From assembly GCA_032718475.1 (NCBI GenBank), contig JAUCBJ010001846.1, forward strand, positions 310,001-374,000: 64,000 nucleotides of DNA, given 5' to 3'. The DNA comes from Nemertoderma westbladi (Eukaryota; Animalia; Xenacoelomorpha). The position numbers and the translations under genes are program-made. Of this stretch, positions 3,402-30,303 are shown piece after piece. Within the stretch, counting starts at the first letter, position 1, and every line of letters begins with the position of its first letter. A model generated the notes under the pieces. The model was not told the origin of the DNA, searched no databases, and was given only the letters and a program-made list of their open reading frames with translations.

Positions 3402-4568
3402 TTATAAATTGTTCATAATTTCTTCACCAAACTGACTAGTCGAAAGCAGTTTTCCGCCTTGTATTGACTCGAAAAAATCTTGGGTGACAGTTTTGTTTTG
3501 TAGGGTCGTTTTAACCCCATTTAACAAGCAGTCTGCCGCTTCGGGGTGCTTTAGGTGACGTAACATCATCTCGGCGGAGAGAATAATAGAGCAAGGGTTG
3601 GCAATGTTTTTCCCTGCAATGGTGGGGGCTGTGCCGTGGGTGGCTTCAAATATTGCACATTCATCTGACAGATTAGCCCCCGGTGCAATGCCAATACCAC
3701 CCACTTGGGCCGCTAGAGCGTCTGAAATATAATCACCATTAAGGTTCATAGTCACCACCACCTGATGGGCTTGGGGGTGAAGGACTATTTCTTGTAAAAA
3801 AGCATCGGCAATGCAGTCTTTAATCGTAATAGTGCCGTGTTCTACTTCAATTTCATACTGGTCATTCGAATTTAGGGCGGCATTAAATTTTTCTTCAGCC
3901 ACTTGGTAGGCCCACTGTTTAAATCCCCCTTCAGTGAATTTCATAATATTACCTTTATGTACAATGGTGAGGGTATTTTTTTGATGTAAAATAGCATATT
4001 CAATGGCGCGTTCCATGATTTTTTTGGAGGCAGGTTCAGATATTGGTTTGACACCGATGGCGCATTGGTCAATATTTTGAATATTGGTTACACCTAGCTC
4101 GCTATTTAAAAAATGAATGAGTTTTTTAGCCTCAGTCGAGCCCGCTTGCCATTCAATGCCGGTGTAAATGTCTTCCGAATTTTCTCGAAAAATGACCATA
4201 TCAACCTGATCGGGTTGCTTAACGGGGCTAGGCACCCCTGCAAAGTAGCTAACCGGGCGTACACACATAAACAACTGAAGTTGTTGGCGAAGGGCGACGT
4301 TTAATGAGCGAATACCCCCCCCAACCGGTGTGGCAAGCGGCCCCTTAATGGCCACGCCATGGGCTTTGATGGTGTCTAGGGTTTTTTGAGGTAAAAGTGT
4401 TCCATATTTTTGAAGGGCTGGCTCACCAATATCAATGGCTTGCCAACGTATTTTTAGGGTGTTGTTATAGGCTTTGGTGATAGCAGCATTCACAACATTG
4501 ATCATCACAGGCGTGATATCTTTTCCAATGCCATCGCCTGTCATAAAAGGGATTACAATTTCTTGCAT
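3402..4568 (-). CDS. icd: isocitrate dehydrogenase (homodimeric type)
   Basis: GDGIG, GGGIRSLN, RENSEDIY, VHKGNIMK, NLNGDYISD, EATHGTAP. Confidence 0.97.
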   Translation of the reverse strand: MQEIVIPFMTGDGIGKDITPVMINVVNAAITKAYNNTLKIRWQAIDIGEPALQKYGTLLPQKTLDTIKAHGVAIKGPLATPVGGGIRSLNVALRQQLQLFMCVRPVSYFAGVPSPVKQPDQVDMVIFRENSEDIYTGIEWQAGSTEAKKLIHFLNSELGVTNIQNIDQCAIGVKPISEPASKKIMERAIEYAILHQKNTLTIVHKGNIMKFTEGGFKQWAYQVAEEKFNAALNSNDQYEIEVEHGTITIKDCIADAFLQEIVLHPQAHQVVVTMNLNGDYISDALAAQVGGIGIAPGANLSDECAIFEATHGTAPTIAGKNIANPCSIILSAEMMLRHLKHPEAADCLLNGVKTTLQNKTVTQDFFESIQGGKLLSTSQFGEEIMNNL

Positions 4569-5611: not shown

Positions 5612-6964
5612 ATGAAAAAATTATTGATGTCTACAGCGCTTATTGGGGCGTTGTTTGCTTCATCTGCGGTCGCGAAAGTGACCATCACAGGTGATGCTCG
5701 TTATCGTTACGCCAGTAACGGTTTATATGAAACCACTCAAGTAACAGGGGAGGCCTATCGTGCGCTTGCGTTTGCAACAACTAATACGCAAACGGCCACT
5801 GATCTGCTCACTGTCATGGGTATAACTGATTTATCCACTGCTAAGTCAGCTTTTTTGGAAAAGTTTGATCCTCGCTTTTATGATACTGCAGCGATTGCTG
5901 ACGTCGCGGCCTACAAAGCAGCGACCAGTGTTACTAGCTTAGCAGCAGCAGGCGCTTCAAGCGGTGAGTCTTCAGACAATCGTTTCCGTATTAATGTGAA
6001 TTTTGCCTCAGAAGATAAATCCATCAAGGGTCGCTTGCGCCTTCGCAGTGATGCTGGTTTTTTTGATACAAAGTCAAACTCAGGAAGACTACGTGTTGAC
6101 CAAGCCTATATCCAAGGTTCAGTACCCGGTGCAAAAGGCTTGAGTGTAAAAGTGGGTTCATTTAAACCATACTTAACACCAAATCATGTATTCACAGACT
6201 TAGTTGCCTTTACGGGTGTTGAGCTGGGTTACACCTCAGGCATGCTAAACGCCTTTTATCGCATGTATGAAAGTTCAGCTGTTGAAACAGAAACATCCGC
6301 TGCCTATAACTTAAACTATCAAAGTGATATTGGCATTAGTGGTTCATTTCAGGGCGTTACAGCCGGTGTTTATTTGGTATCAGACAATGACCAAACAGAT
6401 AAAAATGAAAAAGCCACCATCGCGTATGTAGACGGTGAGTACATGGGTGTTAATGTGGCGGGTGAATACTATGACGTAGATGGCACTGAAAGGGATGCTT
6501 GGTACGCTAGTGCTGGCATGAAGCACAATGAGTACGAGTTTGGTGCTTTTTACTTAGAGTTAGGTAAAGAAGCTTCAACAGGTAGCGACTTCAACCCCAT
6601 GGGTATTAGCATATTTGGTACTTCAGGTAGTTCGTATCTAACACCCATTACTAAGTTGAAAAACTTTGCCTCTTCAGTTGCAAGCAGCACTTTTTATTCA
6701 GCAACTGATCCAAGTGTTTATGGTGGTCAAATTAAGGGATCATTCAACGGCTTAGACCTTCAGTTAAGTTACGGTATTGCCGAGCTTAACCAGGATAAAA
6801 TACCGGTAAGAATTGGTGCTTTGGATACTAAACTCTCAGGGACTGACGATAGTTTCTATGACCTAGTGGTGGGTTATAAAATGGGGGCTTTAAAACTTCA
6901 AGCAAGCTATGGTTCATTCTTAGGTTTAACAACTTTTGGTGCTAATGTAGGCCTTAAATTCTAA
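5612..6964 (+). CDS. outer-membrane porin / major outer-membrane beta-barrel protein
   Basis: Signal peptide, TGDARYRY first strand, VDQAY motif, alternating beta-strand pattern, C-terminal Phe (VGLKF), AAGGA SD. Confidence 0.8.
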   Translation: MKKLLMSTALIGALFASSAVAKVTITGDARYRYASNGLYETTQVTGEAYRALAFATTNTQTATDLLTVMGITDLSTAKSAFLEKFDPRFYDTAAIADVAAYKAATSVTSLAAAGASSGESSDNRFRINVNFASEDKSIKGRLRLRSDAGFFDTKSNSGRLRVDQAYIQGSVPGAKGLSVKVGSFKPYLTPNHVFTDLVAFTGVELGYTSGMLNAFYRMYESSAVETETSAAYNLNYQSDIGISGSFQGVTAGVYLVSDNDQTDKNEKATIAYVDGEYMGVNVAGEYYDVDGTERDAWYASAGMKHNEYEFGAFYLELGKEASTGSDFNPMGISIFGTSGSSYLTPITKLKNFASSVASSTFYSATDPSVYGGQIKGSFNGLDLQLSYGIAELNQDKIPVRIGALDTKLSGTDDSFYDLVVGYKMGALKLQASYGSFLGLTTFGANVGLKF

Positions 6965-7043: not shown

Positions 7044-8129
7044 ATGAGTCGTTGTGTTGTGGGTGTATCAGGGGGTGTGGACTCTTCAGTTACACTTTTT
7101 TTAATGAAACAAGCAGGCTTTAATGTAGAGGCTGTTTATATTAAGAATTGGCAAGACGATACAAATAATTGCCCTGCACTAGAGGATTGCGAATATGCCA
7201 TGCAGGTATGTGACCGGTTAGGGGTTAATTTTAATACCGTTGACATGACTAAGGCCTACAAGCAATATGTTTTTGAAGATTTTTTAATGGCGTATGCGTC
7301 TGGCCAAACACCCAATCCGGATGTCTTGTGCAATCGATCAATTAAGTTTGGCGCTTGTTTTGATTATTTGCACAAACAAACTAAAGATTCATTTTTATTT
7401 GCCACTGGGCATTACGCCGTTATTGAAAAAAAAGATGGCTTGTTTTTGTTGAAAAAAAGTGCGGATTTGTTGAAAGATCAAACCTATTTTTTGCATGGTT
7501 TAACACAAAAACAATTGAGTTTTTCACAGTTTCCTTTAGGGGGTATGCAAAAATATCAGGTGAGAGCCTTGGCTAAAAAACTTGATTTTTTAACCCATGA
7601 TCGAAAAGATAGCACTGGTATTTGTTTGGTTGGCAAGCGCCATATGGTGGATTTTTTATCTAATTATTTGCCCAGCCAAGTTGGCGATATTGTCACACCC
7701 AACGGTCAAATCATTGGTCATCATCCGGGGATTTGTTTTTTTACGATGGGTCAACGCAAGGGTTTAAAAGTAGGGGGGTTAAAGAATTTTGATCAAAGGC
7801 CGTGGTATGTCGCTGAAAAAGATGTCGCAACTAATCAATTGATTGTTGTTCAAGGATTTGATCATCCGCTGCTTTATCACAATGTTTTGGAGGTTGAAAA
7901 TATTCATTGGATTAGTGGGAAGCCCCCGCAAAAATTGGGACTGAAAGCGAAAATACGCTATCAGCAAAAAGAACAAGCGTGTGTGTTAGATAATCAAGGC
8001 GAAAAGTTACTTGTTTATTTTAAAATGCCTCAATGGGGTGTTAGTTTGGGGCAATTTATTGTATTTTATGATGGAGATATTTGCTTGGGTGGCGGGGTCA
8101 TTAACCGTCGCTTTAATCATATCCACTAA
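7044..8129 (+). CDS. mnmA: tRNA 2-thiouridylase
   Basis: SGGVDSS, TPNPDVLCN, ATGHYA, KDQTYFL, DSTGIC. Confidence 0.97.
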   Translation: MSRCVVGVSGGVDSSVTLFLMKQAGFNVEAVYIKNWQDDTNNCPALEDCEYAMQVCDRLGVNFNTVDMTKAYKQYVFEDFLMAYASGQTPNPDVLCNRSIKFGACFDYLHKQTKDSFLFATGHYAVIEKKDGLFLLKKSADLLKDQTYFLHGLTQKQLSFSQFPLGGMQKYQVRALAKKLDFLTHDRKDSTGICLVGKRHMVDFLSNYLPSQVGDIVTPNGQIIGHHPGICFFTMGQRKGLKVGGLKNFDQRPWYVAEKDVATNQLIVVQGFDHPLLYHNVLEVENIHWISGKPPQKLGLKAKIRYQQKEQACVLDNQGEKLLVYFKMPQWGVSLGQFIVFYDGDICLGGGVINRRFNHIH

Positions 8130-8169
8130 GCCAATATGAAAGAACAAATGTGTGATAAGTATTTTTTAA

Positions 8170-8601
8170 ATGAAAATTTTAGTCATCAATGGGCCTAATT
8201 TGAATTTATTAGGTCAAAGAGAACCCCATATTTATGGTAATCAATCCCTTAAGAATATTGAAGATGGTTTGTTCAAAAAATACCCGGCGATTGAATTTGA
8301 TTTTTTTCAATCATCGTCTGAATCCAAAATAGTTGATTATATCGCTAAGCAAAATGATGTCAAAATAAATGGTATTATCATTAATGCGGCATCTTTTACG
8401 CATACCTCTATTGCTATTCGAGATGCCCTATTAGGCGCAAACACCCCTTTTATTGAGGTGCATTTGAGCAATATTTATAAGCGTGAAAAATTTCGTCAGC
8501 ATTCCTATTTAAGTGATTGCGCCCTGGGTGTGATTGTGGGGTTTAAAGGCATGGTTTATTCGCTAGCTGTTGACGCTTTGCTTGATCATTTACAATCTTA
8601 A
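8170..8601 (+). CDS. aroQ: type II 3-dehydroquinate dehydratase
   Basis: NGPNLNLLGQREP, EVHLSN. Confidence 0.97.
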   Translation: MKILVINGPNLNLLGQREPHIYGNQSLKNIEDGLFKKYPAIEFDFFQSSSESKIVDYIAKQNDVKINGIIINAASFTHTSIAIRDALLGANTPFIEVHLSNIYKREKFRQHSYLSDCALGVIVGFKGMVYSLAVDALLDHLQS

Positions 8602-10462: not shown

Positions 10463-11160
10463 GTCTCAATTTTCTCACCATGAGCACTGGCGGTATTTTG
10501 ATCAAACTATCAATTGGTTTGAATACAATCAAGCCGTGAGTGGCTTGTTGCTTGTTTTTAGTGTTTTAAGCAAGGTGTTGGTGGGTATTATTGGATGTCG
10601 CTAATTAACCCATAGAATAGATTTGGCTTTAAAAGACGATCAGTTGAGAACTGATCAAAAAAGAACGATACAACAATCGGTTGTGGCGGATGTTAGTGCA
10701 TGGCTGTATTCCTAATCCTTGGTGCATTGACTGGACGCTGTTGGTTGAGTTTTTGCGTGCTGATTGGTTGTGTTTTGCTGTCAACAGCGGCGGTTATCTC
10801 TATCATAGTTGCTATTATAGCCTTCACGTGTCTTTCAAGTAAGCTCCAAGCTGATTTGTGAACTACTTTTTGTTTTGAAAGTGGTAGGCTGCTGGCGCTT
10901 TTTTGGGCTGTCAACAACAAACCATTTGTTTAAAAATATATGTGATTTATACATAACGGTGTGTTTGTTCTGACTGCAAATAGAATGATTAAGCGGTCAG
11001 CGTATTTTCTGTTAGGTTAGTAGTTTTTTTGCTTTCATATGATGGGCAAGTTGCTTTTTGATGCCATCTTTTTATCAAAGTAGCCAGTTGCTTTGTATTT
11101 GTTTGGGTAATCATGCCATCAATTGATCATTTAAGTTTGTTGTATCAACTTAATTGATGC

Positions 11161-12627
11161 TTAAGATTTTATGGAATTTAGGTATGCGATGCTCATTTTT
11201 TGCATTAATAGCTCAGAATCTAATGGCTTAGGCAAATAATCGTTCATACCAGAGAACTTCGCCTTTTGTTGTTTTTGCTTTGAAAACTCACTGCTTATTC
11301 CAATAACCGGTATGGTCTGATAAGCCTTAAATTGAGAAAAAACTTGACCTAAACGTAGTTGCTTGCATATCTCAAACCCATCTAATTCTGGTATTTCAAT
11401 ATCTGTTAATATTAAATCACAGGTGCATGTATCCAGTATTTTTAATCCGGCTTGTCCACTTTTAGTTGTTATTAGTTTAACGGTATAATTTTTTAATATA
11501 TCGCTGATCAATAAATGATTGATTGGGTCATCATCAATTAATAAAACAGTTTTACCCATTAATACAATTTTTGAGTCAGCATTGGGGATGGTGACGCGAA
11601 AACAACTCCCTTGATTTTCGACACTATCAACTGATATGTCACCACCCACTTCCTTTAAAGATTGTACAACCAAGTACAAACCCAAACCTGAGCCTTTCAC
11701 AGACGAGCTAACGCGATAAAACATGTCAAAAATGGATGCCAAATGTTTTTTTGCAATGCCTATTCCATTGTCTTTTACTTCAATCACGGCTTGTTTTGGC
11801 GAGCAAGTGACCCCAATTGTTACCTTGGGTTGATGGGTTGGGTCATAATTACCATAACGAATAGCATTGTGAATTAAATTTTGAATAATGGCCTTTAAGG
11901 CATTGGGTTGTGTCATAAAGGTTTCTGTTTGTTTAACGTCTACTTTAATACAGTTTTTCTGGTAGTTAGGAATATACATGATTGATTCAAGAATCAACTT
12001 AATTTCTGCTTTAAAATCAAATAAGACCATTTTAGTAGGTTGTGCAATCACTTTTTGAAAGGTAGTTAAATCATGCAAAATATCATGGGCGCGGTCTAAA
12101 CTTGACTTCATTTGTTTTGAATAGGTTTTAAAACTTTCTTGGTTCAAGTTATTTTCTGATTCAATCAACTCAATAATGCCTTTGATGGAAGCCAAAGGGC
12201 CGTTAATATCATGAGAAACACGATCAATAAATAAGTCTTTCTCTTGTGCTTTTTGATACGTAGCGTAAGCAGATTGAATGACTTTAATAAGGGCGTCTTT
12301 ATCCCAAGGTTTTGCGATATAGTAATACACACTGCCTTTATTAATGGCATCAATGATGCTATCAATATCGCTATAGGCGGTTATCAATATGCGTATCGCT
12401 TGGGGGTGAGTTTGTTGAACTTGAGATAAAAACTCAACGCCGCTAATCTGGGGCATTCGTTGATCAGATAACACCACATGAATCTCATGTTCATCAAGAA
12501 TTTTTCGAGCCGTTTTTAGATCAGTCGTGGTGTGAATATTAAAATGCTCACGAAAATTTGCTTTAAAAGACAATAAATTATGCGGCTCATCGTCAAAAAA
12601 CAACACGTTAGTTGATTTAGAAATCAT
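11161..12627 (-). CDS. cytoplasmic hybrid histidine kinase (REC-HisKA-HATPase-REC)
   Basis: DDE/SDQRMP receiver, SHDINGPL H-box, NAIRY, DNGIGI and GSGLGL boxes, second receiver (IDDD, TDIEIP, KP). Confidence 0.92.
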   Translation of the reverse strand: MISKSTNVLFFDDEPHNLLSFKANFREHFNIHTTTDLKTARKILDEHEIHVVLSDQRMPQISGVEFLSQVQQTHPQAIRILITAYSDIDSIIDAINKGSVYYYIAKPWDKDALIKVIQSAYATYQKAQEKDLFIDRVSHDINGPLASIKGIIELIESENNLNQESFKTYSKQMKSSLDRAHDILHDLTTFQKVIAQPTKMVLFDFKAEIKLILESIMYIPNYQKNCIKVDVKQTETFMTQPNALKAIIQNLIHNAIRYGNYDPTHQPKVTIGVTCSPKQAVIEVKDNGIGIAKKHLASIFDMFYRVSSSVKGSGLGLYLVVQSLKEVGGDISVDSVENQGSCFRVTIPNADSKIVLMGKTVLLIDDDPINHLLISDILKNYTVKLITTKSGQAGLKILDTCTCDLILTDIEIPELDGFEICKQLRLGQVFSQFKAYQTIPVIGISSEFSKQKQQKAKFSGMNDYLPKPLDSELLMQKMSIAYLNSIKS

Positions 12628-12651
12628 AAATTTTCATCAAGATGATTATCT

Positions 12652-13149
12652 TTAAGATAATATTTTTTGCCTTAGCATAAACTCAAGCTGATCATTGGTT
12701 TGTATTAAATTATTCTGTAGTGCTTGTTTTTCTTGTCTCAACCAATAAAGCTCATAAGCGGCTTTAATGGCAGCCAAAAGGTGGTCGTAATCCCAAGGCT
12801 TGGTGATGTAGCGATAAATCTCCCCCAGATTAATCGCATCAATCGCGGCGCTCATATCACTATAACCCGTTAATAAAATTCGACTTGGGTCAGGCAATAC
12901 CGTTTTTAATTGGTTAAAAAATTCAATGCCCGTCATTTTGGGCATGCGTTGGTCTGAAATCACCACCTCAATGTTATGTTTTTTAACCAGCTCAATCGCT
13001 AGGATGGGTTGTTCGGTGGTGGTAATGTCAAATTGATGACGAAAACTTGCTTTTAGCGCAATTAAATTATTGACTTCATCATCAATATATAAAACCCGAA
13101 TGCGATCAGTTTTTGGAACTAAATGTTGTTTGGTCTTGTCTTTACACAT
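12652..13149 (-). CDS. stand-alone receiver-domain response regulator with C-terminal coiled coil
   Basis: YIDDE, SDQRMP, LTGY, KPW; no HTH domain. Confidence 0.9.
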   Translation of the reverse strand: MCKDKTKQHLVPKTDRIRVLYIDDEVNNLIALKASFRHQFDITTTEQPILAIELVKKHNIEVVISDQRMPKMTGIEFFNQLKTVLPDPSRILLTGYSDMSAAIDAINLGEIYRYITKPWDYDHLLAAIKAAYELYWLRQEKQALQNNLIQTNDQLEFMLRQKILS

Positions 13150-13374
13150 GTTTTTTATTCCCTCTCCTGAGCGTATAATAAACCATTATGCTGGTATTTT
13201 TGCAAACTTAGATTATCGTTACAATAAGGTATGTCTCGTTTTTTAACTTTGAGATAATTATTTTTTCATGCTAATAGTTATTATTAGAATGAGCAACAAA
13301 ATAATTAGTTTACATGAAACCAAATTCACCTGATCAATGTATTGGTGACATTTAAAATTGTAGCGCTTTGATAT

Positions 13375-14085
13375 ATGTTTCATATTTATGTTTTTAGAGC
13401 CATCGATGACCCCGACCAATGCCAAGCGTTTGCAAAAGGTCATGCCGAGGTGTTAAAGAGTTATGGCATTAAAAAGCTCACCTCCACAGAGCATACGTGG
13501 ATGGCGGACACAAATGTTTATATCGTTGCCGTGAAAGATGTAGAATCTCAAGAAATGGTTGGGGGCGTCCGAATTCATTTAACGAACTTAAGTGCAAGGG
13601 TATCTCTGCCTGTAGAGCAAGCCTTGGGGTCATTGGACGATAAAGTGTCTGCCTTGATTGATGATTACCTTCGAACAACCGGTCAAAAGGTAAGCGAGCT
13701 GTGTGCACTGTGGAATGCTAGAAAAGTATGGGGCAAGGGGTTAGCGTTACTAGTGTGTCGGGCTTGTGTTGCAAGGTCTGGATTAGTGCTATTTAGTCAG
13801 TTAGGTGTTGGTTGTTCATTGGCTTTTTGTGCCCATTGGACAGTCCGAATGTTTAAGGACTTTGGTTATGTAGCTGAAGAGCGTGTTGGCAGCCAAGGTA
13901 TCTTTCCTTATCCCAAGCCTAATTTGTCAGCCACAATGATGATCACCTCTGATATTCACAATTTAAATAAGGCAACCCCAGACAATAGAGAAAGTATTTT
14001 CAACTTACGACAACACCCAGTTCAAAAAAAAATGGAGGTGTATAAAAACAAGTCCTTTAAAGTGTCTTACGACCTTGAATTATAA
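13375..14085 (+). CDS. hypothetical GNAT-fold protein, putative LuxI/FeeM-like acyltransferase
   Basis: 236 aa; VGGVRIH..LP and ELCALWN fall where LuxI/FeeM have R-L..LP and E-x-S/G-R. Assignment is by pattern only. Confidence 0.5.
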   Translation: MFHIYVFRAIDDPDQCQAFAKGHAEVLKSYGIKKLTSTEHTWMADTNVYIVAVKDVESQEMVGGVRIHLTNLSARVSLPVEQALGSLDDKVSALIDDYLRTTGQKVSELCALWNARKVWGKGLALLVCRACVARSGLVLFSQLGVGCSLAFCAHWTVRMFKDFGYVAEERVGSQGIFPYPKPNLSATMMITSDIHNLNKATPDNRESIFNLRQHPVQKKMEVYKNKSFKVSYDLEL

Positions 14086-16231
14086 AGGGGGCAGCTCATT
14101 GAGTTGGTTAAAATACTCACCCATCGCTTTTGCAATAAAGGGCTATTTATGGTTTTTGATCAGTACTGTTCAAATACTGCAAGCAAGCGCTTTTATCCCG
14201 CCCAATCCGATAGCACCCATCAGCCAAGGTGGTCAGTTTTGGGTGGCAGAAGATACAACAGGTGATTTAACCCTTAACCATATTAAACAACTAAGTAATT
14301 GGAAGCGTTGGGAAGGAAGCATACTAAATTTTGGCATGACCCAATCTACTTGGTGGGTTAAGTTTGCTATCAACAATGTAGCCCCCAACCACTACCTTCG
14401 CCTACAAGCCCCCTTAATTGATTACATTGATGTGTATTTTGTTAATAATCGGGGCATTGACCATCGCCAAAGTGGGGCAGCGTACCCATTTAGTCAGCGA
14501 GAAATATCTGCCCTTAATTATTTATTTAAAATCCCCCAAGGCCAGTCAACCGTTTATATACGTTTGTTAAGTAATTTTGCCCTGCAAGTGCCAATAGATA
14601 TGGCCAATTTAAGCGCTTTGAATAAAGAAAGTGCTAACGAGTATTGGTTATTAGGCTTGTATTTTGGGCTGATGCTGACCATGATTTTTTATAACCTATT
14701 TGTCTATACATCAGTGCGCGATAAGGTGTACCTTTTTTATATTCTATATATCATCTCTGTCACCGTACTGTATGCCAGTTTTCAAGGCATTACCTTTCAA
14801 TATTTATGGCCTAATACCCCGAATATTAATACCTTGGTGCCTACGTTTGCTGCAATGGCCGCAATCTTTATCACTTTATTTGGGTGGTATTTTATAGGTA
14901 TCAATAAAAAGCGCTTTGTAAAAACACATAAGCTATTTTTGTTATTGATTGTTATTTTTATTGCTTGTGGTATCGCCAATCTGTTGGGTGAGTATTATAT
15001 CAATGCCAATATCTCGCAGCTTCTTACAATGGTCATATCGTTTTCTTTATTATTTATCTGTGCAGTTGTGTACGGGCGTGGGGGTAAAAATGTACGGTTT
15101 TTCTTGTTGGCATGGTCTTTGTACTTAACATCGGTGATTATTTATATTCTTCAATTACAAGCCGTGATTGATTATAACAACTTTACCAATAATTCAGTGT
15201 TGTATGGCTCAGCAATCGGGGTGTTGTTGCTTTCTTTTGCCTTGGCAGATCGAATTAATTGGTTTAAAAAAGAAAAAGAAGCCTCACAACAACAAGCCTT
15301 ACAAGCCTTTGAAGAGAACGAGCGTATTGTTCGTGAACAAAATATTTACTTAGAAAGCCGTGTAACGGATAGAACCAAAAAATTGAATCAATCCAACCAA
15401 ACCTTACAACAAACCCTTGTTGAGCTTAAACAAACCCAATCTAAAATGGTGGAATCTGAAAAAATGATGTCCTTAGGCCAGCTAACCGCCGGCATTGCCC
15501 ATGAAATTAACAATCCCCTAACCTTTATTAAGGCTAACATTCACCCCTTAAAGCGAGATGTTTTAGCATTAAATGAACTGATCCGTCTTCACGAAAACAC
15601 CACCTATGACCAATGGCAAACAAATAAAAAGTCTATTGAAGCGTTTAAACAAACAATAGACTATGATCAGTTGCAAGCAGAAGTGGGTTTGTTACTGAGT
15701 GGAATAGAAGAGGGGGCAAACCGTACCGTTAAGATTGTTGAAAGCCTCAAATCGTTTTCTCGGTTGAATAATAATGATTTTCGAGACTATCGCTTAGCCG
15801 ATGGTATTGAATCAACACTAACTTTATTGAGTCACAAAATTCAAGAACATACCATTAGTATTACCAAAGATTATCAAAAAGATGTGGTGGTATCTTGCAT
15901 GCCGGATCGTATTAATCAAGTATTGATGAATATTTTAAGCAATGCCATTGATGCGCTTAAAGATAAAGAAGGCGAGCACACCATCAATATTGCTATCAAA
16001 GCTAAAAACAAGTGGGTCACTATTGAAATTGCTGACAACGGCGTTGGCATTGAAAAAACAATTATCAATAAACTGTGTGACCCTTTTTTTACCACAAAGC
16101 CTGTGGGCAGTGGAACGGGGCTGGGGCTTTCGATTACCTATGGCATTATTAAAGAACACAAAGGGGAGATTCATATAGACTCTATCCTCGGTGAAAAAAC
16201 AGTGGTAACCGTCAAATTACCAACAACCTAA
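14075..16231 (+). CDS. 7TM-DISM sensor histidine kinase
   Basis: DISMED2-like region (NFGMTQSTWWVKF, PFSQRE), 7TM (YNLFVY..YLFY), AGIAHEINNPL, NAIDA, PFFTTK, GTGLGL. Start codon uncertain. Confidence 0.92.
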   Translation: MNYKGGSSLSWLKYSPIAFAIKGYLWFLISTVQILQASAFIPPNPIAPISQGGQFWVAEDTTGDLTLNHIKQLSNWKRWEGSILNFGMTQSTWWVKFAINNVAPNHYLRLQAPLIDYIDVYFVNNRGIDHRQSGAAYPFSQREISALNYLFKIPQGQSTVYIRLLSNFALQVPIDMANLSALNKESANEYWLLGLYFGLMLTMIFYNLFVYTSVRDKVYLFYILYIISVTVLYASFQGITFQYLWPNTPNINTLVPTFAAMAAIFITLFGWYFIGINKKRFVKTHKLFLLLIVIFIACGIANLLGEYYINANISQLLTMVISFSLLFICAVVYGRGGKNVRFFLLAWSLYLTSVIIYILQLQAVIDYNNFTNNSVLYGSAIGVLLLSFALADRINWFKKEKEASQQQALQAFEENERIVREQNIYLESRVTDRTKKLNQSNQTLQQTLVELKQTQSKMVESEKMMSLGQLTAGIAHEINNPLTFIKANIHPLKRDVLALNELIRLHENTTYDQWQTNKKSIEAFKQTIDYDQLQAEVGLLLSGIEEGANRTVKIVESLKSFSRLNNNDFRDYRLADGIESTLTLLSHKIQEHTISITKDYQKDVVVSCMPDRINQVLMNILSNAIDALKDKEGEHTINIAIKAKNKWVTIEIADNGVGIEKTIINKLCDPFFTTKPVGSGTGLGLSITYGIIKEHKGEIHIDSILGEKTVVTVKLPTT

Positions 16232-16245
16232 TTGAAGGAGGTTTT

Positions 16246-17667
16246 GTGAAACAAAGTGATCTTATTGTTCAGGCAGAAACAAACATAACGGCGTTTCCCA
16301 AAAAAGATATCCGCTTCGTTCATCGGCCTAGGCATTTGGCTGAGCTTCAAACACTTGTGAAAGAACACCATCAAAATCGAACGCCAATGTATGTGGTAAG
16401 CACCGGTAAAAACTGGGGCTTGGGTTCCAAACAACCCGTTACCCACGAAAATTCTGTTGTGATTTTAGAGCGAATGAATGCAATTATTGAAGTTAATTCA
16501 AATGATCGCTACGCCATCATTGAACCAGGCGTTACCCAAAAACAACTATCAGATTATTTGCTCACCCATCACCCCCACCTTAAATTTCCTGTCACCGGCT
16601 CTGCTGAAAATACAAGCATCGTCGGCAACATGCTAGAGCGGGGGGCTGCCTTTGGGCATCGCAATAAATTACTGATCGGGCTGGAAGTAATGCTTGCGTC
16701 TGGCAAATTAGTGAGAACTGGCTTTTGGCATTATTTTAAAGAAAACAACCCCCTAGCTTTTCATTACCCTGCTGGGCATGGGCCTGACGTGAGAGGATTA
16801 TTTACCCAATCCAACCTTGGCATTACCACGAAGATGGTGATACGACTGCCAATTAAAAAAAATACAGTAGGCGTTGTGATGCATTTTACAGAAAATAATT
16901 TAGAGTCGACTACCAACACGCTACGAGACTTGGTTGAACACAATATCCTTGACGAAGGTGTACTCATTACCAACTTAAACGACCCAAGAACCACCCGCCA
17001 TCAAAATTATACCTATAGCAAGCAGTGGTTTGCTTGTGCTCATTTTTCGGGCGATGATGATTTCATCCAACTTAAAACGAAAAAAATTAAAAAAGCCCTA
17101 TCACCCTTAAGCGATTATTTAACCGTTTTATCCAATGATCCCGATGCAACAACCGAACACCCGTATCACGACATATTAAAAAAAGCCCTACAAGGCATTC
17201 CCACCAACTACAGCCTTCAAACCATGGCAGGTATCACCCACACAACCTTAAGTGATGACAAAATTGACTTAAACCCCAAGGTGGTCGGTTTAATTTCTTG
17301 TTTGCCAGCCGTTGCGTTTGACGGCAAACGTGTGCAGGAAGTCAAAACCTTGGTAGATCAGGTTTCTAAAAAACTGGATGTGAGAGCTTATCATAACTTT
17401 GCCTCAATTGATGAATTAACCCTTGAAGGATTTTATCGGGTTTATTTTGATCGAGAAGACAAAGCGGCTGTCAAACAAGCACATCTGTGGGGCCAAACAG
17501 TTCATAAAGCACTCAAAGAAAATGGGTTTTTCCCTTATCGAATTGATAACCAAAGCATGAAAATTTTTACCAATCATCATGATCCCTACTGGCAGCTAAT
17601 CGCCCAATTAAAAACCGCGCTTGACCCGCATCATATTATCTCACCTGAAAAATATAATGTGGTTTAA
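16246..17667 (+). CDS. FAD-dependent oxidoreductase, VAO/p-cresol methylhydroxylase family
   Basis: STGKNWGLGS, EPGVT, GNMLERG, GPDVRGLFTQSNLGITTKM, LDPHHIISP; GGAGG SD before GTG. Confidence 0.88.
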   Translation: MKQSDLIVQAETNITAFPKKDIRFVHRPRHLAELQTLVKEHHQNRTPMYVVSTGKNWGLGSKQPVTHENSVVILERMNAIIEVNSNDRYAIIEPGVTQKQLSDYLLTHHPHLKFPVTGSAENTSIVGNMLERGAAFGHRNKLLIGLEVMLASGKLVRTGFWHYFKENNPLAFHYPAGHGPDVRGLFTQSNLGITTKMVIRLPIKKNTVGVVMHFTENNLESTTNTLRDLVEHNILDEGVLITNLNDPRTTRHQNYTYSKQWFACAHFSGDDDFIQLKTKKIKKALSPLSDYLTVLSNDPDATTEHPYHDILKKALQGIPTNYSLQTMAGITHTTLSDDKIDLNPKVVGLISCLPAVAFDGKRVQEVKTLVDQVSKKLDVRAYHNFASIDELTLEGFYRVYFDREDKAAVKQAHLWGQTVHKALKENGFFPYRIDNQSMKIFTNHHDPYWQLIAQLKTALDPHHIISPEKYNVV

Positions 17668-17745: not shown

Positions 17746-18059
17746 ATGGAAGACAAATTCTTAATCGAACGACTAGACGCCAAATACCAAGAAGCCCAAG
17801 ACCGCTTCAAAGATGGTGAGCATACACACGAAGACTTAACCATTATGATGCTCTCAAGCACCAAACCAACCACATTACTCATTTAGAAATAGATATTGAT
17901 AGACGGTTTGATTTAATTGATAAACGGTTTGATCAGGTTGGGGAAGAAATGAAACGCTTGGATCAAAAAATCGACATCTTCGTCTGGAAAATGATCACCG
18001 CCATGTTTGCGATGTTCATCATATTTTCAGCCATTATTATTGGCTTTTTAAAATTCTGA
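17746..18059 (+). pseudogene. frameshifted coiled-coil protein with C-terminal membrane anchor (Bdr/DUF1640-like)
   Basis: MEDKFLIERLD...MML stops at 17886; the shifted frame from CTCTC (17851-55) reads KHQTNHITHLEIDIDRRFDLIDKRFDQV...AIIIGFLKF*. Confidence 0.7.
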
Positions 18060-18167
18060 CTTCAAAGTTATCTACCATCGGGCTAAAACAAGCCGTTAAA
18101 ATCAACTTAACGTTTCCAAGCGGTTTTGCCAAATCGCTAAATGCAACATTTAGATACAAAAGAAAAC

Positions 18168-18251
18168 TACCCGGAGCCGGACTCGAACCGGCACAGTATT
18201 ACTACCGAGGGATTTTAAGTCCCTTGTGTCTACCAATTCCACCACCCGGGC
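18168..18251 (-). tRNA. tRNA-Leu(TAA)
   Basis: Reverse complement GCCCGGG..GGGACTTAAAATCCC..long variable arm..GGTTCGAGTCC. Confidence 0.96.
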
Positions 18252-18377
18252 AGCCACAAACAGTATAGTGGATATTAAAAGTTAAAGAAATACCCTTCAA
18301 ATTTAGGCAACAAAATAGCAAACTTGTGTTGTATGATAATTTTTTTTACACCCAAGCGCGGCTTTCAATCAAAATAA

Positions 18378-28953: not shown

Positions 28954-28980
28954 TTTTATGACCAATTATTGGAGGTTTGT

Positions 28981-30303
28981 ATGAAAAGAACTGTGTATTT
29001 TTTTCTAAGTTTATTAATTGTTGGGTTGCTGGCAGGATTTTTGATTTTAAACAACACCCAAACATCAAAGTCGCTTAATTTAAGTACGGTGACCTGCCCA
29101 AAGACACCGCTTGATCAGTTCGGCACAATTAGAAATACACCCCCTAGTTGTTTTGATTATTATGCATTCGCCCAAATGTGGTTGCCTGAATCTTGTATCG
29201 CAAAAAATAACAGCGGTTATGTCGCGCATCAACGTGAATGCCAAAAGCTACATCAAACATTTGATGACCAAATGAAGCCCCATGGTTTGTGGCAGAGTTT
29301 TTTCACAACAACTTCACGTGCAGCTTTTCCTGCTGATTGCATTGATGAAGCGTTCAATTTTGAACAATTACCTTTGCAGCTTAGACAATCACTGAATCGG
29401 TTGTTCTTGGCGCCTGTTAGGGGTTTAAAGGCACATGAATGGGAAAAACATGGTACCTGTGATGGGTCATCTCAAGTTGCCTATTTTCAAAAAATTATTG
29501 ATTACAATGAAAAATTTGCCCAAGCTGGCAAGTTGATTCGAGATGCAGTTGGCAGTACTTTGAAATATGAGCAAATTATTAATGCTTATGGGCGTGAAGG
29601 GCAGGTATATTTGGAGTGCCATCAATATGAGAATGGACAATACCTGAACCAAATATTTAGCCTTTGGAGCAAAGCAGGCGAACCCTTGGAGGTTGACTTG
29701 CATTTTCCTAGCGCTTGTCGCCCAGATAAGGCGATTCATATTCGACCAACTGCTGAGTTTGTGTCTGTTGATGATTGGAAAACACATTTTAGCGAAACAA
29801 GAGAACAACCCGTTGTTGTGGCGTTTGATATTGACGATACTGTGTTGTTCTCATCCCCTGGATTTTATTATTTAAATCAAGAGGGTGTCGGCTTTAGTTC
29901 ATCTAAATTTTGGAACCGAATGAATAATGGTTTAGATGAGTTTAGTTTGCCGAAAAAAATTGGGCAAACGCTTATTGATTTTCATCAAAGTCGGGGTGAT
30001 GCCATTTATTTTATTACAAGGCGTGGCAAATCATCTTTTGAGCAGGTGACTGACATCATTAAAAAGGTATTTAACATTCAAAAAATGAACACTGTTATTT
30101 TTACTGACTTAAAAACCAAAGTGTCTGATATTCAAGCCCTTGGCACTGACGTGTATTATGGTGATGCGGATTCAGATATGATTGAAGCTAAAAAGGCGGG
30201 TGCACAGGGGGTTAGAATAATGCGTGCGGTTAATTCAAATAATCCAGATGGCGCACATGATGGTGCATTTGGTGAGGTGGTGATTTTAGGCTCTGCTAAT
30301 TAA
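28981..30303 (+). CDS. RNase T2 - class B acid phosphatase (AphA) fusion with N-terminal signal/anchor
   Basis: T2 motifs FDYY..W..C, HGLW, HEWEKHGTC; AphA motifs FDIDDTVLFSSPGF, MNNGLDEFSLPK, YGDADSD, GAFGE; GGAGG SD. Confidence 0.9.
   Translation: MKRTVYFFLSLLIVGLLAGFLILNNTQTSKSLNLSTVTCPKTPLDQFGTIRNTPPSCFDYYAFAQMWLPESCIAKNNSGYVAHQRECQKLHQTFDDQMKPHGLWQSFFTTTSRAAFPADCIDEAFNFEQLPLQLRQSLNRLFLAPVRGLKAHEWEKHGTCDGSSQVAYFQKIIDYNEKFAQAGKLIRDAVGSTLKYEQIINAYGREGQVYLECHQYENGQYLNQIFSLWSKAGEPLEVDLHFPSACRPDKAIHIRPTAEFVSVDDWKTHFSETREQPVVVAFDIDDTVLFSSPGFYYLNQEGVGFSSSKFWNRMNNGLDEFSLPKKIGQTLIDFHQSRGDAIYFITRRGKSSFEQVTDIIKKVFNIQKMNTVIFTDLKTKVSDIQALGTDVYYGDADSDMIEAKKAGAQGVRIMRAVNSNNPDGAHDGAFGEVVILGSAN

Follow-up and report, generated by a model that had tools for sequence, protein, structure and literature searches.

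Several bacterial pathways couple an N-acyltransferase of the FeeM/LuxI fold to a tailoring enzyme, and these are the closest described relatives of the locus considered here. The locus is a five-gene block at positions 11161–17667 of a 64,000-nucleotide stretch of DNA (hereafter the window) from the Nemertoderma westbladi assembly GCA_032718475.1, contig JAUCBJ010001846.1. It encodes a GNAT-fold protein, a 7TM-DISM sensor histidine kinase and a VAO/PCMH-family flavoprotein on one strand and two receiver (REC) proteins on the other, and an earlier note had read it as a system that makes and senses its own signal. From sequence and model comparisons we consider it on balance probable that the predicted ligand of the receptor is an N-acyl aromatic amino acid derivative made by the same block. 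This part of the earlier reading gains from homology to the family in the trzA position (below), from repeated pairing with VAO-type flavoproteins and from co-variation of sensor and enzyme, whereas the quorum-sensing role attached to it stays an inference.

The oxazolone pathways TrzAS, TyzACB and OxzAB (PMC12856293, PMC10404671, bioRxiv 2020.06.11.147165) resemble the block in joining a FeeM/LuxI-fold N-acyltransferase to a tailoring enzyme. With short acyl-CoAs as donors, Rv1356c (TrzA) N-acylates tryptophan in the first of them; Rv1355c (TrzS) then turns the N-acyl-tryptophan into tryptazolone by cyclisation and desaturation, and the acyl-tryptophan is found mainly in the supernatant (Kleetz et al., PMC12856293). 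Oxazolones are labile compounds. FeeM and BjaI were the nearest folds to the related TyzA (Grigg et al., PMC10404671). The groups behind the bacterial oxazolones leave their physiological role open and suspect signalling; the role is described as a major open question, with a possible signalling role and adjoining cyclic di-GMP genes (PMC12856293). Like TrzAS, many Bacteroidota copies of the module described below carry a ThiF-nitroreductase of the Rv1355c family. The window departs from TrzAS in that a VAO flavoprotein takes the position of the ThiF-oxidase, and no oxazolone is therefore expected from it; a ThiF cyclase and a nitroreductase-fold oxidase are both absent from the window block. 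The window module further differs from the oxazolone pathways in attaching a 7TM-DISM receptor and a two-kinase relay, and the available text of the oxazolone papers makes no mention of Bacteroidota modules or of 7TM-DISM receptors.

A second comparison is with FeeG, CndG and HyeB, which are flavin oxidases described as forming enamides from N-acyl-tyrosine by decarboxylation (PMC11959600, PMC8762209); N-acyl-dehydrotyrosines are known as alternative products. The window block resembles the FeeM/FeeG (CndG, HyeB) clusters in that FeeM is the top fold match of its acyltransferase and the partner is of VAO/PCMH type with a C-terminal Tyr-Arg. It is unlike them in that the acyltransferase has no match to the FeeM family PF21926 and the block holds no acyl carrier protein or fatty-acid genes. 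The portions of PMC11959600 and PMC8762209 available describe no receptor for these clusters.

Among signalling systems, N-acyl-cyclolysine (ACL) is an acylated amino acid derivative made by two enzymes in Bacteroidota and used as a density signal (PMC13419125, PMC13080023). The module is likewise Bacteroidota-centred, and its predicted product is likewise an acylated amino acid derivative. In the ACL system a LuxR-family transcription factor recognises the signal (PMC13080023); the module carries no transcription factor and has, in its stead, a membrane receptor and a phosphorelay. No open reading frame (ORF) for a LuxR-family regulator beside two enzymes, as in the ACL system, was found in the window block.

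An adjoining synthase and membrane kinase that feeds a relay is the arrangement of CqsA/CqsS, LqsA/LqsS and LuxM/LuxN, and in the module the adjacency of synthase and receptor is similarly conserved. The module differs from the CqsA and LqsA systems in its synthase family, in its swappable tailoring step, in its 7TM-DISM receptor and in having no HPt protein or DNA-binding regulator. Synthase-plus-kinase signalling is already known; the proposed signal chemistry and the receptor class would be new here, and no account of the enzyme family joined to 7TM-DISM receptors was found in the literature searched (Creative Commons PMC, bioRxiv), which did yield relatives of the enzymes and the ACL system. 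The receptor is like RetS and LadS in having a DISMED2-7TM sensor with the RetS fold. To our knowledge neither is paired with a ligand synthase, and we know of few ligands for 7TM-DISM receptors. One of the two kinases is like LvrB, a REC-controlled kinase downstream of, and activated by, another kinase, LvrA (PMC13269768); unlike the Lvr relay, the block has no LvrC-like anti-sigma output.

Acyltransferase, conserved module and tailoring slot

All five ORFs of the block lie where the earlier note had placed them, intact and without internal stops, and its domain assignments agree with Pfam. The acyltransferase gene (13375–14085, plus strand) encodes 236 aa that, taken alone, have no meaningful match in Pfam or NCBIfam; a DUF3347 match (E 0.009) lay below the cut-off and was rejected. 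A word-based homologue search returned one protein, and a full HMMER search gave a family of 419 clusters at 50 % identity without a Pfam model of its own. Among 129 relatives, 37 touched Acetyltransf_1 and six touched FeeM (PF21926) weakly (best E 1.8e-5), while the window protein had no PF21926 match at E<=0.1. Against the Protein Data Bank (PDB), phmmer returned chance matches only and the family profile returned weak GNAT matches (best 18.5 bits); a tblastn search in plasmids found no relative.

The fold was more informative. In the AlphaFold (AF2) model, with a mean confidence (pLDDT) of 92.6, FeeM (2g0b) was the top match by VIA-align (Z 18.1, root-mean-square deviation (rmsd) 2.5, 177 aligned residues, 10 % identity), followed by LasI (Z 16.4), a Pseudomonas acyltransferase (16.0), TofI (15.4) and RpaI (14.9). 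Foldseek ranked RpaI, FeeM and BjaI in the lead. The GNAT fold claimed in the earlier note was thus recovered in the comparison with LuxI and FeeM that it had called for, with FeeM and LuxI-type synthases as the top fold matches. Across the family G64 and E108 are invariant and R66 is present in 116 of 129 members; these presumably correspond in place to an Arg and a Glu that are conserved in LuxI enzymes. The N-terminal LuxI signature is Arg/Phe/Trp; its positions read His23/Leu27/Gly31 in the window protein, and the signature is absent. The autoinducer synthase family was not among the 15 Pfam families matched by any of the 129 members (E<=0.05), and no LuxR receptor ORF was found between accC and tRNA-Leu, the genes that flank the block. 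Identity as an N-acyl-homoserine lactone synthase was rejected on the missing Pfam match and the missing LuxR. The 236-aa protein is a LuxI/FeeM-fold acyltransferase that is a member of neither LuxI nor PF21926; it is predicted to N-acylate an amino acid. As a separate observation, family members occur fused to TIR, to a leucine-rich repeat (LRR) protein and to ThiF, and also as double or triple tandem repeats (P0071, P0050, P0093, P0010, L243:9776-11941).

A kinship with TrzA was assessed through the gene that stands beside an Rv1355c-family gene on a Rhodococcus plasmid, with relatives collected in mycolic-acid bacteria (the trzA-position family). The two family profiles aligned by hhalign at a probability of 97.2 % (E 3.8e-11, 192 columns, 17 % consensus identity), and 48 of 50 trzA-position members scored E<1e-3 with the hidden Markov model (HMM) of the window family at PDB scale (median 29 bits), which exceeds the 18.5 bits of the best PDB match to that profile. 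In the Nocardia locus L207 the trzA-position gene lies directly upstream of an Rv1355c-family gene on the same strand, in trzAS order; at the plasmid loci L179 and L208 the ThiF-nitroreductase fusion has no trzA-position neighbour. The profile match, the member scores and the L207 gene order together suggest that the family is likely a sister of TrzA, a link that is indirect in that the compared family was identified by position and taxa. At one module locus (L001) the ThiF-nitroreductase scores above the NCBIfam threshold for the Rv1355c family (766 vs 476 bits).

To place the block among its relatives, genomes were scanned with a 14-sequence sub-alignment of the acyltransferase family, by which 483 loci were confirmed. 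The best 80 of these, nearly all titled Bacteroidota, and the best 80 of 513 metagenome loci were analysed; as neither set is random, 400 Bacteroidota genomes were sampled at random against selection bias. The acyltransferase gene was present in 16 of the 400 (~4 %), cultured type strains among them. Cultured carriers of the module include Phaeocystidibacter luteus and Sphingobacterium alimentarium, both of the ThiF type, and Sediminibacterium soli and Limnovirga soli, both of the ICMT type. In the 80-locus genome set its neighbours included a 7TM-DISM kinase at 72 loci, a lone REC protein at 74 and a REC-kinase at 69, and five of the eight loci without the 7TM-DISM kinase had <1 kb of contig downstream. 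All 16 random loci had both a 7TM-DISM kinase and a REC-kinase beside the acyltransferase, and nine had a lone REC by a strict rule. The linkage of acyltransferase and receptor is far beyond chance. The neighbourhood survey proposed in the earlier note therefore bears out the linkage that it had claimed; rather than standing alone, the block is the flavoprotein variant of a wide, Bacteroidota-centred family with a swappable tailoring slot. Four records (L007, L059, L060, L062) are titled Methylophilus, Beijerinckiaceae or Chryseobacterium; their loci group with other Bacteroidota lineages, and the titles may be wrong.

The slot was occupied in the 80-locus set by an ICMT-like membrane methyltransferase (32 loci), ThiF (19), a ThiF-nitroreductase fusion (14) or a VAO flavoprotein (1) and held none of these types at 14, one of which (L069) has an S-adenosylmethionine (SAM) methyltransferase. 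In the random loci the counts were seven fusions, five ThiF, two ICMT, one SAM-type and one with no such enzyme. The ICMT, ThiF and flavoprotein types would all fit a substrate with a free carboxyl group.

The flavoprotein that fills the slot in the window (16246–17667, plus strand, 473 aa) is a predicted tailoring oxidase. It matches FAD_binding_4 at 70 bits, its PDB matches are PCMH, VAO and eugenol oxidase (EUGO) at both ends, and its profile aligns with PCMH (1wve) at E 3.5e-56. This upholds the VAO/PCMH assignment of the earlier note. Residues Tyr431-Arg432 are present in all 55 close relatives and align with the PCMH 'VYR'; a C-terminal Tyr-Arg and an N-terminal Tyr are the phenolate pocket residues of VAO/PCMH enzymes. 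Arg398, at what we take to be a VAO pocket position, is invariant in the same 55 and missing from other module-linked subclades; it would suit a carboxylate.

In the window flavoprotein clade, a family acyltransferase adjoins in 7/7 loci with context (two cut by contig ends) and a receptor in six, and L081 and L082 keep the window order of acyltransferase, kinase and flavoprotein at 53–72 % identity. Of the best 80 metagenome relatives, the 77 that are more distant show no module. In three order-level samples with 36 flavoprotein places, 14 had a family acyltransferase within 1.5 kb (Chitinophagales 2/9, Flavobacteriales 3/3, Cytophagales 9/24), with one fragment cut by the end of a contig in addition, and a flavoprotein search of five module-bearing genomes found none. 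The module-linked flavoproteins come from at least four separate VAO subclades. One of these, that of L218, also holds L252, whose neighbour is a true FeeM, and one of the subclades is paired elsewhere with a true FeeM at L235 (100.9 bits). These pairings are consistent with a FeeG-type oxidative decarboxylation to an enamide, to which we give about an even chance; a dehydro-amino acid product would be a clearly less likely outcome.

Other neighbours of related flavoproteins were recorded. At L253 a 236-aa protein (7460-8170) stands in the acyltransferase's place, flanked by a VAO flavoprotein and by a 7TM-DISM receptor that belongs to the flavoprotein-type clade; it was not counted as FeeM, having no Pfam match. 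A Cytophagales VAO subclade (L223–L232, L091) lies mostly downstream of a SAM methyltransferase-like gene (one Pfam-tested) and not of a GNAT gene. A VAO-type flavoprotein is directly 3' of a flavin-dependent halogenase-like gene at L087 and L088, and an ICMT-like gene is directly 5' of a VAO flavoprotein at L134, L135 and L138, in a long same-strand cluster with ORFs of 1000–1300 aa.

Receptor and relay

The receptor gene (plus strand) probably occupies 14099–16231, the longest ORF starting at 14075; residue numbers below are counted from 14075. The in-frame TTG at 14099 stands 7 nt after an AGGGGG purine run and gives a 710-aa product, and this start is the more likely one because of that spacing and because the L081 and L082 orthologues have 708 and 709 aa. 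The junction with the acyltransferase gene is then more likely a 13-nt gap than an 11-nt overlap. The tight operon of the earlier note accordingly stands in one part, the 14-nt gap before the flavoprotein gene, which holds an AAGGAGG ribosome site, and probably falls in the other, the overlap, which rests on the first TTG at 14075.

The protein has an N-terminal signal or hydrophobic segment, DISMED2, seven helices, a coiled coil, HisKA and HATPase. DISMED2, 7TM-DISM, HisKA and HATPase all score above the Pfam cut-offs, H476 and the N, G and F boxes are intact, and hydropathy places seven hydrophobic segments at 192–391. In its AF2 model (pLDDT 93.1), Foldseek matched the RetS sensor domain (3jyb/2xbz) and then Wntless (WLS) and TMEM87A at a poor rmsd of 12–16. 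A DISMED2 domain can bind a small aromatic amine, according to a preprint on RetS and norepinephrine.

The relation between receptor and tailoring enzyme was examined in 86 full-length receptors, split into sensor and cytoplasmic halves; 13 of 99 loci lacked a full receptor and were dropped. With the 12 slot-less loci not treated as a state, the tailoring type changed four times on the tree of the sensor half, seven times on that of the cytoplasmic (kinase) half and five times on that of the acyltransferase. Among pairs with 60–80 % cytoplasmic identity, 7TM identity was 0.50–0.64 for the same type vs 0.39–0.40 for different types; below 55 % there was little contrast, and the pairs are not independent. 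In three Chitinophagaceae loci, two changed to the fusion (L001, L002) and one to the flavoprotein (L038), the kinase half falls inside the ICMT clade (support 100) and the sensor half outside it. Grouping these three on the sensor tree was rejected by the approximately unbiased (AU) test (p 0.010, 26 rows). Fourteen of the 18 flavoprotein-type sensors form one clade (support 97) that unites the window, Bacteroidota kinases and Cytophagales receptors with a SpoIIE output; the other four, from three orders, group with two SAM-type sensors (support 91). The sensor half thus appears to track the tailoring enzyme and not its own kinase half, with three enzyme swaps accompanied by sensor swaps.

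The columns diagnostic of type were mostly in the 7TM region (12/16), with 3/16 in DISMED2. Sensing through the DISMED2 ectodomain, as the earlier note had proposed, is therefore not where these residues point. By hydropathy and the model, Tyr233, Asn302, Tyr307, Gln315 and Asn373 lie at the periplasmic ends of helices 2, 4, 5 and 7. Gln315 was found in all 18 flavoprotein-type and both SAM-type sensors, in 3/39 of the ThiF type, 0/29 of the ICMT type, 0/12 slot-less and 1/13 non-module sensors.

Two further receptor forms were seen. In Cytophagales (L243-L245, L247, L249-L251, L254, L255) a SpoIIE phosphatase, in some cases with GAF, forms the C-terminal part of the receptor, and the loci have no REC proteins (two Pfam-tested); from such sequences, the output domain of the receptor can be a kinase or a phosphatase. 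At L268 and L270-L272, proteins of ~500–550 aa with DISMED2-7TM and a short tail, and no acyltransferase gene, score as high as module sensors and are divergent from an oxidoreductase-like gene.

The relay proteins are encoded on the minus strand. The REC-HisKA-HATPase-REC hybrid kinase (11161–12627, 488 aa, Pfam) retains D55, T83, K106, H139, the N and G boxes, D409 and K467. The Bacteroidota module has a REC-kinase of ~365 aa, to which the first 350 aa of the hybrid kinase correspond (L085 copy: 36 % identity over 364 aa); the C-terminal REC of the hybrid kinase comes in addition. The lone REC protein (12652–13149, 165 aa, Pfam) has D66, T94 and K117 and, with no DNA-binding domain, a conserved C-terminal helix ending in N-x-[QK]-LEF-x-x-RQ-x-x-[LI]-S; this tail was visible in 15 orthologues inspected and matched the strict pattern in 33/87. 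Receptor and relay proteins together retain the phospho-acceptor aspartates, the H-box histidine of each kinase and the ATP-binding boxes. In L081 the hybrid-kinase orthologue (3470-4267, minus strand) keeps the receiver (52 % identity) and has no recognisable kinase domain. Both promoters are presumed to lie in the AT-rich divergent intergenic region of 225 bp (13150–13374), where promoter-like matches in a promoter scan were no better than in shuffles and where comparison with the L081 region found no common motif.

No HPt or DNA-binding output was found in the window block, and the recurrent neighbours in the 80 loci were receivers, thioredoxins, transporters and enzymes, with no DNA-binding output. 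The output target is therefore expected elsewhere, and the lone REC may be an acceptor or modulator.

Proposed signalling and its alternatives

The chemical and signalling steps proposed here are inferred from observed folds, residues, linkage and co-variation. From an aromatic amino acid the block would build a small signal with a fatty acyl chain, which its own seven-helix receptor kinase would sense. The flavoprotein would oxidise the acyltransferase product to an enamide, a dehydro-amino acid or another product, which would leave the cell or partition into the membrane and bind the receptor, probably below DISMED2 where the 7TM bundle faces the periplasm. By analogy with LvrA and LvrB, the receptor kinase would then phosphorylate the N-terminal receiver of the REC-kinase-REC protein and switch on the second kinase. 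The lone REC and the C-terminal REC would serve as acceptors, sinks or outputs, with a final target outside the block.

Several observations weigh against this proposal. Identity of the acyltransferase to FeeM and LasI is 10–12 %, the link to TrzA is indirect as noted, and that to FeeG, CndG and HyeB is also indirect, these having been compared by description. In the flavoprotein, Leu59 replaces the N-terminal pocket Tyr (PCMH 'FGYGS'), and Leu, Gln or Ile stands there in 52/55 close relatives. Some enzyme pairs lack an adjoining receptor, namely acyltransferase and ThiF at L056, L060 and L062, which have ample flanks, and acyltransferase and flavoprotein at L213; conversely, a genome search found no family acyltransferase for 8 of the 25 top-scoring sensors of the random sample. 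The AU groups were picked after the first trees, the converse AU test, made for the cytoplasmic half, gave no significant result (p 0.13), and Gln315 was chosen post hoc from ~350 columns. Part of the co-variation could stem from linkage, since the tailoring gene adjoins the 5' half of the receptor gene and both can move as one cassette. The module lacks both an HPt and a DNA-binding regulator, which leaves no basis for inferring positive feedback. For the oxazolones, tryptazolones were mostly intracellular (Kleetz et al., PMC12856293), and oxazolone addition reportedly gave no phenotype (de Rond et al.).

The best surviving alternative, which we judge unlikely, is that the lipid made by the enzymes serves in the membrane, as a surfactant, against bacteria or under stress, and that the receptor answers an outside cue such as a glycan, an ion or a host amine. 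The match of DISMED2 to the RetS sensor domain and to carbohydrate-binding folds agrees with such a cue, as do the binding of a host catecholamine by RetS in the preprint, the similar sensors without enzymes (8/25) and the enzyme pairs without receptors; oxazolones are reported to be antibiotic-induced and N-acyl tyrosines to be antibacterial. It fails, however, to predict that the sensor half changes with the enzyme while the kinase half stays, or that flavoprotein-type sensors have outer-face residues in common across orders and outputs, and it sits poorly with a receptor in the enzymes' operon at 16/16 random loci.

It is quite improbable that the module instead detects a molecule from outside, be it an aromatic amine, an amino acid or a foreign acyl signal, and ends or converts it by acylation and oxidation. 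In favour of this, most VAO/PCMH enzymes have catabolic roles, the fold matches of the acyltransferase include arylalkylamine N-acetyltransferases, and a common substrate would also make sensor and enzyme co-vary. Against it, synthases (FeeM, LasI and the trzA-position family) give the best structural and profile matches, and the commonest partner in the random sample, ThiF or ThiF-nitroreductase (12/16), spends ATP on biosynthesis (PMC12856293). That the acyltransferase acylates a relay protein or is a non-catalytic receptor partner, with the flavoprotein a passenger, is very improbable: protein N-acetyltransferases do match the fold at Z 13–14 and family members are fused to TIR and LRR proteins, but by HMM a small-molecule tailoring gene adjoins in 66/80 and 14/16 loci, one member forms a fusion with ThiF, several subclades have contributed flavoproteins, and the acyltransferase stays with the receptor when the output switches from kinase to phosphatase.

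For the proposal of a self-made signal, a wider form can be stated tentatively, and we rate it a little short of even. The module would belong to a widespread combinatorial family of signals between cells, with one acyltransferase scaffold, a finishing enzyme that is exchanged among oxazolone synthase, cyclase, two sorts of methyltransferase and VAO oxidase and that fixes the chemical dialect, a re-matched outer receptor pocket and a kinase or phosphatase output; the window would be the enamide dialect in a likely animal-associated gammaproteobacterium. With the synthase, the finishing enzyme and the candidate receptor in one operon, matched ligand-receptor pairs are directly testable. If true, the proposal would give a first signalling role for oxazolones and enamides and the first self-made ligands for 7TM-DISM receptors. 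It would also give a second signalling language of Bacteroidota beside ACL, read by membrane receptors and not by transcription factors, and a natural series for how a seven-helix receptor changes its ligand.

Origin and surroundings of the block

The RNA polymerase beta subunit encoded in the window scores highest with gammaproteobacterial chains (7f0r, which we take to be Pseudomonas, and then Escherichia coli); its source may be a gammaproteobacterium that lives in association with an animal. Together with L081 and L082, the window falls in a clade on a long branch, in which the receptor and the flavoprotein are nearest the Bacteroidota locus L085 and the acyltransferase is not. Sequence relationships of this kind suggest that the block was likely acquired horizontally by a gammaproteobacterial lineage.

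The block stands amid housekeeping genes, between accC and the 3' end of tRNA-Leu(TAA) (18167–18252, minus strand, ARAGORN), which points toward it and is a possible old integration site. No second copy of the tRNA-Leu 3' end (12–20 nt) and no integrase ORF was found in the window, and the GC content of the block genes is 0.35–0.43 against 0.39 +/- 0.04 for 50 other ORFs, with third-position GC (GC3) about 1 standard deviation high in four of the five. A recent tRNA-integrated island is therefore unsupported, and the lack of an att repeat, an integrase and an odd composition suggests that the acquisition was not recent.

Beside the block, the ~700 bp between accC and the hybrid kinase gene (10463–11160) hold no ORF of >=80 aa and may be decayed. 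In the interval between the flavoprotein gene and tRNA-Leu, a small gene-like stretch (17749–18059, plus strand) is broken over two frames; its second piece is coiled-coil-like with a hydrophobic tail at the end, and neither piece has a significant Pfam match. Farther away on the plus strand, 5612–6964 encodes a 450-aa protein with a signal peptide and a C-terminal Phe that is porin-like by eye and has no Pfam match, and 28969–30303 encodes a ribonuclease T2 domain fused to a HAD class IIIB acid phosphatase domain.

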